A stretch of 64,000 nucleotides of DNA, taken from positions 1-64,000 of the IMG/VR virus record IMGVR_UViG_3300035498_000404. One strand, 5' to 3'. Position 1 is the stretch's first letter. The number at the start of each line of letters is the position of its first letter. The DNA is from a virus. Its lineage: Duplodnaviria > Caudoviricetes. Both the position numbers and the translations under genes were made by a program. Below the pieces are notes generated by a model. That model did no database searches. It was given only the letters and a program-made list of their open reading frames with translations, and was not told the DNA's origin. This document shows positions 17,070-56,101 of the stretch, piece by piece.

Positions 17070-18119
17070 ATGCCGAGAGGAAGAAGACCTTCTACTACTA
17101 CAACAAAGAAAGTAGCAGAAAAGGCCGGAGCACCGAAAGTTGTATGTTTATGGTGCGGCTGTGATAATCAGTCAAACTTTTATCAATGCAAAGACAGACA
17201 TCGTAGGTACTTTGGTAAAATTCCTTATTGTAAGGAATGTATATAGAAAATATATGATGAAAAACTGGCGAGGTATAATGGAAACATTAACCTCGCCCTT
17301 TATTATACTCTAAGAAAAATTGATGTTCCATATATTCATGTCGCATATCTTGGAGCGCTTGATAATGTTAGAAATGAGAACGCTAAAATCAGAGGCGAAG
17401 AGAATATTTTAAAAGCATATATGAAAAATATGTCTTTTGCCGAAAATAATGGCTGGGGTTTCTCATTTGATGAAAGCCAAGGCGAAAATGAAATTGAGGG
17501 TTTGGCTTCATATGACGACGTTATAAAAGTCAAGAGACGAATTAGTGGAGCAAACACTTCCAATAATCAGGATTATGATTTGATAGAATTAGATGCGCAA
17601 GACCTCGTTCAAAAATGGGGGCAGTTTGACGATGATGATTTAGCTTGGCTAGAATCTGAGTATATGGACTGGGAAGAGCAGCTAAATGGTATTAGCGATA
17701 AGAGCGTTGATATTATGATTCGTCAGGTGTGTTTGCAGTTAAATGAAATTCGCAAGGATAGACAAGAAGGAATTCCTGTTGAAAAGAAGATTGCCACATT
17801 ACAGCAACTTATGAAAACAAGCGGATTGACTGAATTGCAAACAATTGATGATAAACCTCAAAATATTGGAATGAATATCCGAGATATTGAATTTAGAAGA
17901 CCAATTAAACAGGTTGACCCGGAATTGGCAGACGTTGACAACGTGCATATGATTCTGGATGCCTTTATTGGTGGAACGTCAAGAGCTATTGGTAAAGAAA
18001 ATGAATTTACCGAGAGATTTGATGAAGAGTATGGTAAATATACCATTGATATTATAGATGAATTAAAAGGGAAAGTGGCAATTCAAGAGCCAGAAATAAC
18101 TGGTGATTCCGATGGATAA
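17070..18119 (+). CDS. Zinc-finger protein preceding the terminase (probable small terminase subunit); TAG at 17244
   Basis: ATG 17070 is in frame with ORF 17421; CLWC...CKECI*K; position directly upstream of TerL. Confidence 0.7.
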
Positions 18120-21100
18120 GAAAAGCCACAAAGTTTATATTAGAAGAAGAAAAAAAGTAAATATGTCAAAGACAAAGCGGTTTATGGACAACCTTGAAGC
18201 GTGGACAGCTTATTGGAGAAGCAATCCCCATAGATTTGCAACTGATTATTTAGGATTTAGACTGTATGATTTCCAGAAAGTCCTTTTATATCAAATGTTC
18301 GCACATCCTAGTTTTGTATACGTGGCCTCGCGGGGTCTCGCCAAATCAACGCTTGCCTTGATATTTGCTACTATATATTGTATTTTATATCCGGGAACTA
18401 CAATTGTTATTGTTGCTCCCACTAGAGGACAGTCAACTAGATTTGTTAAGAATATTCAAAATCTAGCTCGTGGCCGTCCTAATATAATGTCTGAAATTAA
18501 ATCAGTTAAAACTGGTTTAAATGAAAGTCGAATAGACTTCTGGAATGATTCGGCTATTGTAACGCTTCCGTACAGTGAAAATGCTCTCGGTGAATAACAG
18601 TATTTATTACTAAAACGCCGCTATCAATGGTAACATTGGTATGATAATTGCAGTAAAAAACTGGAAACCTGAAATGGTAATCAGAGGTGAAGATAATTCT
18701 AAGAATTATCAGCCGCAACGCATAGATGGTGAAAAGATATAATCCATCCAAGAGACTGCAACTGCCAAATATTTGGTAGAAAAGATATGCTGAACTAATG
18801 AGAAAAAAATCATTAGAATTATAGGATAAAAAGCCTATAAGATAACAAATTGGTTAGAGCCAATATTCTTATAGTTGACGAATTCGTTCGTACCGAAAAG
18901 GAAGTTATAAGCCGTGTATTCGTTCCTATGCTTTCTTCTCCTAGAAGCCCAGATTATACTGATTTAACTTCTAAAGAAAGAGAGGCATTACCAGAAGAAC
19001 CAAATAGACAATTATATTTGTCCTCTATTAGAGGCGCAGATGAATGGTCTTATGCCAAGTTCTTACAATATATAGACGAAATGACCAATGGCAATACAGA
19101 ATATACAACTGTTGCTTTACCTTATAATATAGGTGTAAAAAACAGATATATTTCTCGTGCTATTGTTCAACAGTCTTTTAAAGAAAATCAAGATTCTCTT
19201 GAAATGCTATACGCAGAATATACGTGTAGACCAGAGAGAGGTTTAAACAATTCTTTCTACCGTTATGCTGTATTGCAGGAACGGAGAGAAGAAGCTCGTG
19301 CTATGGTGGCTATGAGCGATTTTGAATATTTACAATACAAAGGCGATAAATCTAAGTTTCCATTTTACCAAGAAAAATTGCCGAATGAAATTAGAATTTT
19401 AGCAATGGACGTTGCCTTGGTAGAATCCGCAAAGAACGATTGTAATGTTAGTAATAACATACACAGTCCGCTGCATTTAGAAATTATGCAGTGTATTTCT
19501 CTGAACTGCTGGAAACCCCTTATAGCTTGTATGCTACAACATACGAATGAAAAATGTCGAAGTGTGAATGCTTAAAAAATTACAGGATTGGGAAATCAGC
19601 AACTAAGCCCCGAATAGGGGAAAGCTCAACGACCAATAGTTGAAATACTTATAGGGCAAGTGCCCGAAGTGGAGAACACCTAAGTGTAATTTGTTTTAAG
19701 GTAAATTATATATGGTGAATGATATGGTCTATGCTTATATGAAAATATAAGAAAAATTATTCATGATACAAATAAAAGATAAGGACACTGGAGTAGCTGC
19801 CTTTTTAATGCCCCTAACATTAAATTACTTATCTTTTATTTTTTTATATATATTACACCGTTAGGGAGGTGAGAATATATGATAGTTGGATTTAAAATGG
19901 AAATCCATCCAAATGGATTTCAACAAGAAATATTAAGAGAATATTGCAAAACATATCATAATATGTGGAATTTTTTAGTTGCAAAATATAAAGATAACTT
20001 ACCAGTTGTAAGCAAATATGGAATAAAAGATTTCGATACGAACGATTTAATAAATGAATTTGGGAGTGCTATACCAAAAAGAATCGTTTTGGGTGTTATA
20101 AAAGAATATTCCAGAGCAGTACAAATGGCATATAATAAAGTCGTAAACAGACCTAAGTTTCATAAATACAATCCGAATAAACAATCATTCTACATTGCCA
20201 GCATGACTTATTCTGTAACAAATGGCCGTGCTGTAATCCCATCTTTAGGAAGAGGACGGGAGAATATGTCGTACAGAATTCCATTAGACATAGAATATCT
20301 AAATAAATATAATATCAAAGAAATTATAGAGCCAAGATTTACTTTTTATAAAGGTAAATGGTATATTTCTGGCAGTTATAAAAAATAGGATGTTCAAAAA
20401 TCTAATAAAGAATTTATAGGGCTTGATTGGGGTATAAAAAATTTTATGACTAGTTCTAATGGCGACTTAATAAATTATCCAAATAATGTAACTAGAGAAT
20501 ATTACCGAATAAGAAAAATACAATCACTTCTGGATAAGAAAAAAAGAAAATCTAACAACTACAACAAATTATATAAAAAACTCTGTAACGCATATATAAG
20601 ATTAGAAAACTTAAAAAATGATTTTATAGAAAAAGAAACCACATCTCTATGTAAAAATAATAGCATTGGAGTTGAAGATTTGGAAAACTTAATGCAGTCC
20701 AACAAAATTATAAGAAGACAGAATTTTATATGTCCAAGAAAAAGATTTGTAGACGCATTAATGTGGAAATGTGAAAAATTTGGAAGTTATTTTGTTGTTG
20801 TTAATCCGGCTTATACCTCTCAAAAATGTTGTATATGTGGCAAAATACATAAATTAACATTAAGAGATAGAATAATGATTTGTGATTGTGGTAATATTAT
20901 TGACCGTGATATTAATGCCGCTATTAATATTAAAAATGACGCAATTGCGTCAGTGGGTATTTGTTGTACCTATTAAAAGTCCATAACATGGATAATTCTT
21001 TATATATTTAACGAATGTATAAAGTAATAAAACAGAATACGGCGTTTTGGGTTTTGCGTTTAATTCCTAATGGAAATAAGTATAAAAAGATATTTGCTTA

Positions 21101-22028
21101 TGCAGAGAGTATGAATGGTATTAATTCATTACTACAAACCCTGAGAGCAAAGCAATTGTTTTATGAATTTGACTGCGACTATTTTGTAATAGACGGTGGT
21201 GGCGTAGAAACTGCGCTCCTATTTGGTGACAAATAGGTGATAAATGGGTGTAAAAAACTGGAATTCTGAGAGGAAAATCAGAGCGGAAGTTTGTATTTAA
21301 AAGTATAAACACGCACAACGCATACGAATTGAACCTCGTGAAGAGAATATAATATTCGCAAGAGACACCCACTTCTTTTAGAATAAGAAGAAAAGATATG
21401 CTGAACTTACAGGAATACAACTGTAAGAATTGTGGGATAAAAAGCCCACAAGATAACAAAAGTTGTCGGGAGATTTAAAAAATCTCCCGATTTCTATTGA
21501 GGACAAGGAATTGTAGATATTAGCACTGTTGAGACAGAAGACCCAGTTCGTGGGGAAATTTATCCGGCGTGGACTGTTGCTAATTCTGATGACCTTAAAA
21601 ATATTCATAGAACAATTTCTGAAAATGCTGTACCAATTATGGTGTCTGTTAAAACGGGCATTGCAGATAAAAGTAGAATGCTAGTGCATTCTCGTGATGA
21701 AATGGCAACTAATAATATTTCTTTGCTTGTAGATATGCAAGATGGAATAGATTACTTAAATCAGAACTTTGACTTCTATAAAGTTTCTGATTAGGATTTA
21801 AGAAACAGAGTTTTAGCTCCTTATGCTCAAACTTCTGCTTTTATGAACGAAGCTATTAACTTGAAACAAGTTAGCGTTCAGGGTAGAATTAGTGCAGAAG
21901 AAAAATCAGGCAGACGTAAAGACCGCGTTATGAGCTTGGTTTATGCGCTAGATTATGCCAAATAGCTTGAAGATGGATTAAGTGTCCAGCAGAATAATAG
22001 CTGGGAAGATTATATATTTTTCTCATAA
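18112..22028 (+). CDS. terL: Terminase large subunit, 4 exons: 18112-18591, 18853-19440, 21036-21205, 21500-22028; TAG at 21792 and 21963; about 588 aa
   Basis: Walker A ASRGLAKS; splicing restores ALG|VRANILIVDE, MDVAL..SAKND|NTAF and IDGGGV|GQGIVD; C-terminal RKDRVMSL. Confidence 0.92.
18592..18852 (+). mobile_element. Group I intron TerL-I1 (no ORF)
   Basis: P1 CGGU/GCCG; P7 GCAUA/UAUGC; ends in G; same family as RNAP-I1 and TerL-I3. Confidence 0.88.
19441..21035 (+). mobile_element. Group I intron TerL-I2 carrying tnpB (IStron-like, no transposase)
   Basis: P1 GAU-UGU/ACA-GUC; AACUGCUGGAAAC and AAUCAGCAAC core; P7 GACCA/UGGUC; ORF lies downstream of P7'; ends AACAG. Confidence 0.88.
19879..20976 (+). 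CDS. tnpB: TnpB RNA-guided endonuclease (365 aa via TAG 20386-20388)
   Basis: Readthrough joins the two ORFs in frame and supplies RuvC-I IGLDWGIK; RuvC-II IGVEDL; zinc finger TSQKCCICG..CDCG; RuvC-III DRDINAAINI. Confidence 0.9.
21206..21499 (+). mobile_element. Group I intron TerL-I3 (no ORF)
   Basis: P1 GCGU/GCGC; P7 GCAUA/UAUGC; ends in G. Confidence 0.88.
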
Positions 22029-42500: not shown

Positions 42501-45500
42501 GAATAATTACCTCGGTATAGTAAAAATTGTTAATATTGGACAATCCGCAACTAAGCACCAAGAACTGGTGAAAGCTCAACGACCATCCCATAGGTTCTTT
42601 TCAGAACAACAGGAGTACGGCCAATCGTTAAGGTGGGTGAAAATCCCTTAAATGGAAATGGAGAATATCCTAAAAATAATTATAAAAGACTTGACAAAAA
42701 GAAATAAATATGATATAATTACTGTTATAGGATAAAGATATGGTCTTTTCTTATTAGAAATAATAAGGTGTTTGTTTGTATTATGGAGATGAAAATGATT
42801 ATTTCAAAATTTGTAAATATAAGAATGGTTAGTCAAAATATTAAATATTATAGAGATTTGGGGTATGAATTTAATAACGGTGAAACAATTCCTATCAAAA
42901 TTGAAGATATTGGAAATGGAAATCGAGCATCCGTAAAGGTTAAATGTGACTATTGTGGGGATGAATATGAAGCACAATATGCAAATATTATGAATGGCAG
43001 AAAGATTTTAAACAAAGACGCTTGCAAGAAATGTGGGCATAAAAAGAGAGAAGAAATTTTGTTGCTTTTATACGGAGTAAAAAATCCTATGCAGTTGCAG
43101 GAAATAAAAAATAGGCAACAAGATTCATTGGAAGCTCATTACGGAGTGAGAGTTCCGGCAAAAAATAAAGATATTTCAAAAAAACAAGCAGAATCTTTTA
43201 AAAAATCTTATGGTATTGGTAGTGATGGATATGACGAGTATCAGACCAAACGAAGAAAAACCTGTATTGATAAATATAGCGTTGACAATGCCTCGAAATT
43301 AGAAGAATTTAAAGATAAAGCTGCGAAAACTTGTTTGGAAAAATATGGTGTAGAGCATCCATGTCAAAATCCAGACATTATGGAGAAATTTATAGAAACT
43401 TGCAATGAAAAATATGGTGTTGATTATTATTTGCTGACAAAGGATAAACAAATAAAAACCACAAAAACCTGTATGGATAAATATGGAGCAATAAATATTT
43501 CAAAAACTGATTATTGGAAAGAAAAGGTAAATAATTCAGTTATGGAAAGATATGGTACAAAATGGGTCGGAGAATCAAAAGAAATTCAAGATAAAATAAA
43601 GAAAACGAATATGGAAAGATATGGCGTTGAGTGCGTCTTTTCGTTGGAAGAAATTCGTTTAAAGTCAAGAAAAACTATGCTTGAAAAATATGGTTCAATA
43701 ATGCCCCAATGCGTTAGTTCTCAACAAAATTATATTCATAGTATATATGGTGGAGAATTAAATAAACAAATTGGAAAATATGTTGCTGACATTTTATTTA
43801 CAGATGAACGTATTGATTTTGAATATGACGGTGGAGGACACGATTTAAGTATTAGGCTTGGAGCTATATCTGAAAATAATTTTATAGACAAAGAAACAAT
43901 CAGGAATAATTATTTTATAAAAAATGGTTATAAAATTTTTAGAATTATTTCCAAAAAAGATAGATTACCAAACGATTCAATCCTTATCGAAATAAAAAAT
44001 AAAGCTTTTGAAGTTTTATTAAATACAGAAAATAATATTTATACTTATAATATAGATAATAACACAGAAGAATACAAACAAATCAATGTGGAATAACGAC
44101 CCACATTAAAAATTTATACTTTCTAAAGTTGCATCTGTGGCCTCACAATCCGGTGTTTCACTGGAAAAACTAGAATCAATTCTGGTTGTCACAGAAGACC
44201 AAACACAGCAATCGGCAGACACCATTAACAAAACAGTGGTGTATAAATCAATTCTAATATTTATGCGAAAATCCAGAGATGGACAACGCTTCGGAAGGTA
44301 AATTACCGCCGACAACGACTGAATGAATTGACCAAATTTATTTTGGATGCAACAGTCTGAACACATAATATAATCGAACAATGAAATATGTGAATAGGAG
44401 TCATTGGTAATCAGACCAATTAAAGAAGAACTTCTATCGCCTACTATAAAGTAGGTCACAAAAGTAACAGAATGTGGTAATGCTAAATGTTCTTGGCATG
44501 GCACATAGTAATATGTGCAATAATTAATCCCTTTAATTGCGGGAAACCCCTTAGAGATTAACATACTAAAATATAATAGGAATATTATATTGGCGAAAGT
44601 AACTATTTCGGTATAGTAAAAATTGTTAATATTGGGCAATCCGCAGCTAAGTGTTCAGAACGGACAAAAGTTCATCGACTATCCAATAGCTTTCAAATAA
44701 GCAACAGGAGTACGGCCAATTGTTTAGGTGAGTGAGAATCTCTTAAATGGAAATGGGGGACATCCTATTATTTAGGATGAAGATATAGTCAAAACTTGTT
44801 AGAAATAATAAGAACTTATATTAAAAATATAAATCATTGAAAGAATCTTATTTTTAATATAGGTTGCATAAAAATAACGAACTTATGTTAATTAATTGTG
44901 GAACAGTATTTTTGCCAGAATGTCGAAAATTGCTGCTGGTAAAGACCTTGAAGACACCGAGGTAACGCTAAATGATGTCGATAAGGTCTTAACCAAAATG
45001 AATATTAGTCTAAAGGATGAACAGGGTCAAATTCGTGACCTTGACGATGTTCTTGACGAAGTTGCAGGTCGTTGGGACACCTTTACGACAAATGAAAAGA
45101 ACCAAATTAGTACGGCTATCGCGGGCACACGACAAGCCAACTATTTTAAGGCCGCAATGGCCGACTGGGGAGAAGTTCTTGACGGTACGCAAATTGCATT
45201 AGACGCAAATGGTACGGCCACAGAGCGTATGGGTATTTATACCGAATCCCTAGGAGGTAAAATTAAGACCTTAAAGGCTACTTGGGAAGAATTTGTAGCC
45301 GATTTAAATTTGGACGATGTTATCTCTAATGTAATTAGTACAGCACAAAATCTATTAGAGATTTTTGATACTATAATAAATAAAAGCGGTGTTTTAAGTA
45401 CCGTAATTAAAGGAGTTCTTGTTGCACAAGGACTAAATATTTTATCTGGCGCTGTTGTAAAGGTTCTTGGTACACTAACTGGTAGTGGTGGATTATTAAG

Positions 45501-54290: not shown

Positions 54291-54316
54291 TTTTTAAGAT
54301 TGGAGTGTGCTTAATA

Positions 54317-56101
54317 ATGAATTTAGATAGTGTTCCAATTAAATATGTGTTAGATTCAAATAACACACTTCATTAGATTGATTACGAAACATTAGCAAAT
54401 TTACCTAATGGGTTAAAAAATCCATATGAATTAATAATTTTTGGTACTTCTTATGATGGTTCTAAAGAAATATCAATTGAAAAACAAATTGCTTCTAATG
54501 ACTTAGTGGGATTTGTAAAGCCAGTGAATGTTTCTTCTGAAATGACAACTCCCGTTGGCATAAATGAACAAGGAAGGCTATTTACGACAAGTCAAAAAGT
54601 TGATTCATTTTTGTCTAAAGATAGCACAAACTCGGTTTAGAATTCTGTGATTACTTAGAATATTTTTAAACTAGAAGATGAATTAGATAATAAAATAAGT
54701 GAAGAGAGCTTTAATAAAGTTGTTTCTGAAACGAACAACAAAATATAGAATTTACAAAATGATTATTTAAATAAGATTAGTTCCGTATCTTAGAATTTAG
54801 AAAATTATAAATCAGAGACAAATGAAACAATTGATTTAATACAATAGGATTCCAAAACAAAACCAATATCATTAGTTTTTGAAGATTATAATTCATTGTC
54901 TAATTGGTTGTCTATTCAGGACAATTTGTCGAAAATTGAATCTGGCGCTACTTTTTATTTGATACAGGGGGATACAGATTACTTTTGGGACGGAAATACA
55001 ATAAGAACCATTAAAGGCTCTGGCAATAGTAATTCAAATGGTTTATAGGACTATTTATCTCAAGTTAATCCAACAGGAATTGGTAGTTTTCAAATGAACT
55101 CTTCTGGCGCTATTGGAAAATATTCTGTTTCTCTTGGATATAATTCGGTAGCTTCTGGAACTTGTTCAACTGCAATCGGTTTAGGAGTAATATCTTCTTA
55201 GAATAACCAATTTGTATGTGGAAAGTATAATATTGAAGATACTGATAACAAATATTTATTTATAGTTGGTAATGGAGCTTCTGATAATAATAAGAGCAAT
55301 GCCTTTTCTGTTACTTCTGATGGAAATATAAGTTCGTACTAGGATGTTATAGCATTTTATTCTGATAAATATTATGCGAATGATACATATTGTAATTTTA
55401 CATATAATATTTCTTCATTTAATGGAACGTTAAATATGTCGTGGGATGGATTTGCTCTTGCGGTTTCCGGTGTTTCTGGTGATTATAAATTTGAATATAC
55501 TGGTGAGCATTGGTATTGTTCTTAGGTTGACTTATCATATATTGCAGATGAAACAACACAAGAAATAGGATGGTTTCCAATAAGTATAATTGGCATTTCT
55601 TTTGTTGATGAAAATGAAGAAGAGATAAACGAAGATACCATATCTTTTTCAAAAGGAGACTATATATTTGTTCATTTTCTTGCTCTCGAAGCTATAAGCT
55701 TGCGAGAATTGTATAATTATACTCATTTTGGATTAAGTTCTTCTACTGAAAATATTACAAAACTAGAAGAAAATGTCTCTACTTTACAAGAAAATTCAGA
55801 AAAATATATTTCAGAAATATCTTAGGCTATAAACGATTCTGAAAAAATTAAATATAGTATTAAAAATATAAATGATATAGAATTATCAAATATCACATTA
55901 AATTCTGTTACCAGTGAAAAAGCTGGTCTAATGTCCTCTACTGATAAAAACAATTTAGAACAATTAATAAAAGATATTGAATCCATAAAAAAAGAAATTG
56001 AATCAATCAAAGAAAGATTAGATAAGCTTGAAAATCCAGATTCAGATAAAGATACTGATTCCGGTGAAGAATCTACTGATAAATCAAATACTAATAAATA
56101 A
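54317..56101 (+). CDS. Tail fibre/adhesin-like protein, 594 aa with 11 in-frame TAGs (absent from the ORF track)
   Basis: No TAA or TGA in frame for 1.78 kb; YadA-head-like SVSLGYNSVASG..STAIG, GKYN..LFIVGNG..SNAF and AGLMSSTDK motifs. Confidence 0.82.

Follow-up and report, generated by a model that had tools for sequence, protein, structure and literature searches.

The tnpB gene and its in-frame TAG codon

The window analyzed here is the first 64 kb (64,000 nucleotides) of the 102,894-bp IMG/VR record IMGVR_UViG_3300035498_000404 (34% GC; estimated to be 97% complete), which comes from a virus of the class Caudoviricetes. On its + strand, inside the terminase gene terL, lies tnpB (19879..20976), a gene of 365 codons that has the Shine-Dalgarno sequence GGGAGGTG upstream and a single in-frame TAG at codon 170 (20386..20388; here TAG170), which is read as sense, probably as Gln. 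Under translation table 11, the open reading frame (ORF; 19879..20388) ends at this TAG after 169 codons. With TAG as a sense codon, the frame is open to the TAA at 20974-20976. The peptide around the codon reads ..SYKK*DVQKSNKEFIGLDWG.., and the Asp of the RuvC-I motif (D183) follows 13 codons later. Because TAG170 precedes this Asp, the standard-code product, a fragment of 169 amino acids (aa), contains neither the zinc finger nor any of the three RuvC residues; the sole internal restart ORF (20446..20976), which opens at the next in-frame ATG, begins 3' of D183. Both the position of the TAG just before RuvC-I and the loss of the nuclease domain under the standard code had been pointed out in the initial annotation of this DNA, and both were confirmed.

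The product is predicted to be a TnpB protein (IS200/IS605 OrfB, RuvC nuclease) on the basis of its domains, its D-E-D triad, and its zinc finger. It matches PF07282 (Cas12f1-like_TNB) with 68.9 bits (cutoff, 26.3) and PF01385 (OrfB_IS605) with 53 bits (cutoff, 30.5), and phrog_506 aligns to residues 1 to 359 straight over TAG170 (E value, 2.6e-64). In an alignment of 26 family members, D183, E266, and D344, as well as C317, C320, C335, and C337 of the CxxC..CxC zinc finger, occupy invariant columns, and every invariant residue is kept in the window TnpB. The best match among solved structures is ISDra2 TnpB (PDB 8bf8, 8exa, and 8h1j; E value, 1.3e-18), whose RuvC and zinc finger region aligns over residues 175 to 364, whereas the N-terminal half has no significant similarity to the window protein. 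Unlike the element described here, ISDra2 is a standard-code bacterial insertion sequence that has TnpA.

Evidence that TAG170 is translated in a gene under purifying selection

The same TAG was found in all other fetched copies of the lineage (L002 to L004 from IMG/VR, L148 to L150 from JGI, and L151 from Logan), and none of them contains another stop codon or a frameshift. The copies available for comparison represent five full-length haplotypes and one partial haplotype and come from at least 7 samples. Among the full-length haplotypes, the variable sites 3' of the TAG are scattered across codons 229 to 347 and comprise eight synonymous third-position changes and two conservative replacements (V/I and R/K); upstream of the TAG, there are four synonymous and four replacement sites. 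The ratio of nonsynonymous to synonymous substitution rates (dN/dS) is ~0.12 when all of tnpB is considered and ~0.06 for the part that follows the TAG, and the downstream excess of synonymous changes is significant both under a neutral model that allows changes at all sites (P = 5e-5) and under a transitions-only model (P = 3e-3). Such an 8:2 excess is a protein-level signature, which argues that the nuclease half is translated and selected. TAG170 is thus a translated sense codon in an intact tnpB gene under purifying selection.

Codon 170 had been expected to fall at a variable linker position, and the homologs agree: in 120 of them, the corresponding column holds P (41), E (20), S (19), D (18), N (7), K (3), or Q (3), and the three nearest relatives all have Glu, encoded by GAA in the closest. 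That TnpB uses the recoded TAG as sense, as proposed in the initial annotation, therefore holds, and the two signs named there as speaking against it, namely, standard-code homologs with the same stop and marks of decay, were sought and neither was found. A collection of 15 billion proteins contains the gene solely as fragments of 169 aa (four variants on 13 contigs in all) and 176 aa (two variants). The best full-length relative among 5.8 billion proteins is 68% identical, with none higher, and in GenBank phage records the TnpB homologs are all less than 30% identical.

A simple pseudogene, in which a decaying TnpB gene has recently acquired a nonsense mutation, or an assembly error would also account for a table 11 frame that is broken before the nuclease domain, in an element that has no TnpA. 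It is an exceedingly improbable explanation, given that the TAG recurs in independent assemblies, that no further lesions accompany it, and that dN/dS is ~0.06 to 0.12. In addition, among the fetched viral contigs, interruptions by TAG alone were seen solely in homologs from TAG-recoded contigs, although partial matches could hide stops.

It is also very unlikely that TAG170 acts as a true stop, so that only the 169-aa N-terminal fragment is made and the downstream sequence is conserved as RNA, as part of an intron or omega RNA structure. The last 200 nucleotides (nt) of the element are indeed highly structured and overlap the end of the ORF, and a suppressor tRNA was not found (see below). 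However, a purely RNA-level constraint does not fit the third-position pattern of 8 of the 10 downstream variable sites and the mildness of the two replacements. The stretch after the TAG also remains open for 195 codons at 28% GC, the catalytic and zinc-binding residues are all intact, and some 40 other in-frame TAGs of late genes need read-through anyway.

The IStron and its position in terL

The gene is carried by the second intervening sequence of terL (19441..21035, + strand; 1,595 nt), in which a group I ribozyme is followed by tnpB and by a structured 3' end. This is the architecture of an IStron without TnpA, and splicing of the element is predicted. The element was delimited by mapping the TerL of a related phage, L017, and by comparison with contiguous relatives. 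The uninterrupted 602-aa L017 TerL is colinear with four segments of the window (18121-18591, 18856-19440, 21036-21203, and 21501-22025), and its residues 369|370 abut at window positions 19440|21036. In 38 related phages, terL is contiguous at the insertion site, which falls within a conserved NDNTA peptide. The last nucleotide of the 5' exon is U, and that of the element is G. No other + strand ORF of at least 60 aa, and thus no TnpA gene, was found within 19441-21035. "ORF B only" IStrons have been described (PMC4227781), and the missing TnpA therefore does not exclude the element from the IStrons.

The catalytic core of the group I intron (19451..19751, +) corresponds to positions 1 to 253 of the Rfam model RF00028. 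In a 501-nt search, it scored 52.8 bits over the full length of the model (gathering threshold, 50; E value, 1.2e-12). The ribozyme was missed through speed filters both in a gathering-threshold scan of the whole window and in a 4-kb E-value scan and was found only when a stretch of ~500 nt was searched; other introns of the genome may have been missed in the same way.

The structured 3' end (20836..21035, +) overlaps the end of tnpB and folds with a minimum free energy of -46.3 kcal/mol (z = -3.7 versus shuffled sequences). We consider it a candidate omega RNA scaffold and right end of the element. Two of its hairpins, compared by eye, stay paired through double changes in a homologous element of another phage, L055. 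That element (74% nucleotide identity) encodes the 68%-identical TnpB (P0002), lies in another gene, has no TAG in its tnpB, and is likewise preceded by ..GAT; its homology to the window element ends exactly at the equivalent of position 21035. The phage that carries this copy is 115 to 125 kb in size and was seen on at least 24 contigs; close to the element it has another TnpB as well as genes for a DUF7487 endonuclease and a GIY-YIG protein (L055 5550-7156 and 12222-13098).

At the left boundary, the sequence ACGAT (19436..19440, +) would supply both the transposon-associated motif and the U of the 5' splice site. At the right boundary, the start of exon 3 (21036..21055, +) is the putative match for the TnpB guide in an intron-less allele, as judged from IS605 and IStron biology (PMC10690162). 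Most of the intron-less terL relatives (L017 to L054) have GAC, not GAT, as the Asp codon at the insertion site. GAC removes both the 5' splice-site U and the ..GAT motif and may be a form of resistance to the IStron.

In several respects the element resembles group A IStrons (CdISt1-like, IS605 family), which insert after TTGAT, ATTAT, or TTTAT and end in TCAG and which have also been reported in Clostridium botulinum phages (PMC4227781). It shares with them the 5' group I ribozyme followed by tnpB, the ..GAT before the insertion (ACGAT...ACAG in the window versus TTGAT...TCAG in group A) and the ..CAG 3' end, the exact restoration of the host ORF when the element is removed, and hosts of the Firmicutes type; the host of the window phage is probably Gram positive. 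The window element differs in that it has no TnpA, lies in the terminase gene of a TAG-recoded phage, and carries a tnpB that needs amber decoding.

The four exons of terL, all on the + strand, were placed by mapping uninterrupted TerL proteins. Exon 1 (18103..18592) was identified by tblastn with the proteins of L017 and L022 and matches phrog_15503 and other terminase phrogs, and exon 2 (18853..19440) and exon 4 (21500..22028) follow from the same mapping. The junction between exon 3 (21036..21205) and exon 4 was set by the alleles L002 to L004, which lack 294 nt at this point. Exon 4 contains two in-frame TAGs of its own (21792-21794 and 21963-21965).

Two short intervening sequences, 18593-18852 (~260 nt) and 21206-21499 (294 nt), flank exon 1 and exon 3 on their 3' sides. 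Both are exactly absent from the alleles L002 to L004, which are 98% to 99% identical to the window and instead have an extra insertion of ~259 nt at window positions 18338-18343 (L002 1467-1725). Since near-identical alleles lack these sequences, intron presence varies between near-identical phages. Small-window searches of the two sequences with Rfam, including the group I model, gave no match.

Genome recoding and the search for a decoder

The phage is TAG recoded. Its greedy coding fraction rises from 0.831 under code 11 to 0.907 when TAG is taken as sense, whereas taking TGA as sense gives no rise, and TAGs interrupt otherwise open frames that have no other stops. In total, 77 in-frame TAGs were counted in the genome. 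Considering ORFs of at least 100 aa, the late morphogenesis block on the + strand (15.6 to 70.7 kb) has 40 TAGs in 14,841 codons (2.70 per 1,000), distributed over 18 of 47 genes, compared with 4 TAGs in 9,252 codons (0.43 per 1,000) in the early replication block on the - strand. The recoding is mild, TAG making up 7% of the Gln-type codons in the late genes. The window also contains a 598-aa protein with YadA head repeats (54305-56101) that has 11 in-frame TAGs and just two distant homologs among 5.8 billion proteins.

Recoding is known to concentrate in the late genes of recoded gut phages (bioRxiv 10.1101/2021.08.26.457843; PMC9523058), and code 15, in which TAG is read as Gln, has been proven by proteomics in crAss-like phages (PMC9523058). 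As in the code 15 gut phages, the in-frame TAGs of the window phage cluster in structural and late genes, and early genes have almost none. It differs from those phages in the mildness of its recoding and in that neither a suppressor tRNA(CUA) nor a release factor was found. Gln is the most likely residue at TAG, by analogy with these phages and from the TnpB proteins of other recoded phages; the phage's own genes gave no fixed residue.

TnpB genes of other recoded phages

We checked 80 TnpB loci from viral contigs for in-frame stops. Interruptions by TAG alone were present in the window lineage and in three other genes, L063 (four TAGs), L064 (one TAG), and L065 (six TAGs). The contigs carrying these three genes are themselves recoded, their coding density being 0.51 to 0.66 under the standard code and jumping to 0.83 to 0.85 with TAG as sense. 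In contigs without such a rise in density, the matched stretches contained no in-frame stops, although some of the matches were partial and could hide stops. Six of the 11 TAG codons in the three genes align to columns in which Gln is the commonest residue (background Gln, 3.1%), and one of these columns, Q15, is Gln in 118 of 118 homologs. TAG accounts for 36%, 12%, and 50% of the Gln-type codons in the tnpB genes of L063, L064, and L065, compared with 20%, 45%, and 41% in the flanking genes, so that the tnpB genes are similar to their surroundings.

A second ORF of 365 codons with three in-frame TAGs lies on the heavily recoded L064 contig (6083-7180), 3 kb upstream of the TAG-bearing tnpB, and may be another TnpB copy. 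A further TnpB homolog (L068 10001-11096; 52% identity) was not used as evidence because its frame shifts near residue 125; it also contains one in-frame stop. Its contig is seemingly TGA recoded (coding density rising from 0.70 to 0.83). The homolog may be decaying, or the sequence may contain an error.

Part of the initial annotation had been that the TnpB is a long-term resident of the phage. Residency as such is supported only to the extent that no sampled copy of the lineage lacks TAG170 and that TnpB genes of this family turn up repeatedly in TAG-recoded phages, at TAG densities like those of the phages. "Long-term," however, is not quantifiable, because the IStron is more AT rich (29% GC) than the terL exons (36% GC).

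Weighing the readings

We estimate a probability of about 80% that TAG170 is read as sense, likely as Gln, in a selected tnpB gene of a TnpA-less IStron in terL and that the codon was tolerated and fixed in the late module. Several observations weigh against this reading. The haplotypes behind the 8:2 count come mostly from one JGI sample series (3300035515-22) and are not fully independent. Neither a CUA-anticodon tRNA nor a gene for a release factor was detected in the 97%-complete genome by ARAGORN (normal, with introns, and relaxed), the Rfam tRNA model, a pattern scan for NUCUARN stem-loops, or a search for PF00472. For five TAGs located in terL exon 4 or in one of three neighboring genes, the aligned residues of 38 related loci are mostly E, L, or K, with Q in the minority, and column 170 of TnpB is Gln in just 3 of the 120 homologs. 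Finally, the TAGs of the four TnpB genes lie upstream of the RuvC-I Asp at 9 of 10 independent positions, while 57% would be expected from the placement of Gln (P = 0.03). This weak excess hints at something beyond drift, but the sample is small and the N-terminal half is more variable.

A tRNA-like gene and a tRNA gene were also noted in the genome. The first, of 113 nt within a tRNA cluster (genome 90494-90606, - strand; L013 6494-6606), has good acceptor, D, and T arms. Its anticodon arm, however, has an insertion of ~39 nt; no anticodon could be assigned, and a CUA anticodon in particular could not be derived. The second is a tRNA(UCU) for Arg (genome 90317-90400, - strand; L013 6317-6400) with a variable arm of 14 nt. 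A class II shape, with a long variable arm, is normally that of Leu, Ser, and Tyr tRNAs.

Does TAG170 control TnpB?

The initial annotation had further suggested that the TAG could delay cutting until late in infection and had contrasted TnpB with two other endonuclease ORFs that have no internal TAG. These two ORFs belong to homing endonuclease families (1453-2256, - strand, HNH_3/NUMOD1, phrog_59; 42768-44093, + strand, DUF7487, phrog_12131), and the absence of internal TAGs from both was verified. The contrast is not significant, since at the late-gene rate the probability of finding no TAG in 442 codons is 0.30 and the comparison is one of 1 versus 0 events. Nor is a timer supported: terL has two TAGs of its own, the TAG density of tnpB is that of the late genes, and neither a strong promoter of its own nor a suppressor tRNA or release factor that would define a switch was found. 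The claim that the gene would be disabled in a standard-code genome did stand, because only the 169-aa fragment without the nuclease domain would be made there.

A broader form of this idea is that TAG170 is a selected gate or attenuator, which would block or limit TnpB production until TAG is strongly decoded and would thereby time cutting, limit the repression of terL splicing by TnpB, or confine the element to recoded phages. We regard it as unlikely, although it has several points in its favor. TnpB together with omega RNA strongly represses IStron splicing (PMC10690162), and low TnpB levels could thus favor the essential host gene. The TAG is fixed in all copies, and the upstream placement of the TAGs in the four recoded-phage TnpB genes (P ~0.03) points in the same direction. 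The same logic has been proposed by Borges et al. (bioRxiv 10.1101/2021.08.26.457843) for TGA-recoded Agate phages, in which a group I intron endonuclease is preferentially recoded and delayed production was suggested. The two cases have in common a selfish, intron-borne nuclease gene with the phage's reassigned stop codon in frame. However, the Agate nuclease is a homing endonuclease of the protein-only kind that lies in an early gene; there, TGA stands for Trp, and preferential recoding is statistically supported across a clade. The window gene encodes a predicted RNA-guided TnpB in an IStron, the late gene around it has recoded codons of its own, and its single TAG is at background density.

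Other observations speak against a gate. With two TAGs in exon 4, the host gene is at least as dependent on amber decoding as TnpB, so the codon does not separate TnpB from terL in time. One TAG in 365 codons amounts to 2.7 per 1,000, equal to the late-gene mean, and at that rate a gene of this length would contain one TAG or more with a probability of 0.63. A single codon offers no statistical power. Between the left boundary of the element and the start codon of tnpB, no strong promoter was found, only weak matches at 9 of 12 positions. Since the genome of the phage does not contain the target, which is an intron-less terL, early cutting would do the phage itself no damage. As for the bias in TAG position, it is marginal, and variability is simply higher in the N-terminal half. 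It is equally doubtful that the amber codon, by its place upstream of the RuvC-I Asp, is a selected code lock, by which TnpB would be held to the level of suppression, splicing of the essential terminase mRNA would be spared from a block by TnpB and its omega RNA, and the IStron lineage would be confined to TAG-decoding phages. If it were, this would be a general strategy, provided that the TnpB genes of recoded phages favor TAGs in the N-terminal half. The simplest reading is that TAG170 arose by drift under a permissive code and not as a selected gate.

Under the preferred reading of a tolerated sense codon, the following scheme can be proposed, its mechanistic steps being drawn from IS605 and IStron biology (PMC10690162). 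Transcription of the IStron would occur together with that of terL, in the late module, whose TAGs are decoded. A Glu codon (GAG or GAA) at a variable linker position probably mutated to TAG, and the change would have been tolerated and fixed, like the ~40 other TAGs of neighboring late genes. The ribozyme would splice the IStron out of the late terL message, giving functional TerL, and TnpB would be made from the precursor or the excised intron by means of its own strong Shine-Dalgarno sequence, its full length depending on the decoding of TAG170. TnpB would then bind the 3' RNA, whose guide would read into terL exon 3. The complex may cut the intron-less terL of coinfecting relatives beside ..GAT, and recombination would drive homing. 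RNA-guided homing against intron-less terL alleles is thus suggested by analogy with these systems. Whether TAG170 was selected or drifted, the full-length nuclease can be made only where TAG is decoded, and the gene is in that sense code-locked.

Implications

Late-gene recoding, a recoded intron endonuclease, and the biology of IStrons and TnpB were known before. What is new is a predicted RNA-guided nuclease gene that carries the alternative code of its phage. In the literature, we found no paper linking TnpB or IStrons to recoded stop codons or suppressor tRNA; one crAss paper mentions TnpB genes without discussing their codons. As it stands, the finding is the behavior expected of a late-expressed gene in a recoded phage.

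It shows that a TnpB/IStron lineage can persist under selection inside an alternative genetic code. Mining for TnpB and IStron nucleases under the standard code splits or discards such genes, and for this one the databases hold only the 169-aa and 176-aa fragments. Nucleases of this kind come with a natural code lock: in a cell that uses the standard code and has no amber suppressor, they would be inactive. Taken together with the repression of IStron splicing by TnpB (PMC10690162), the element offers a simple natural setting for asking whether the efficiency of amber suppression adjusts how a selfish nuclease and its essential host gene are balanced.

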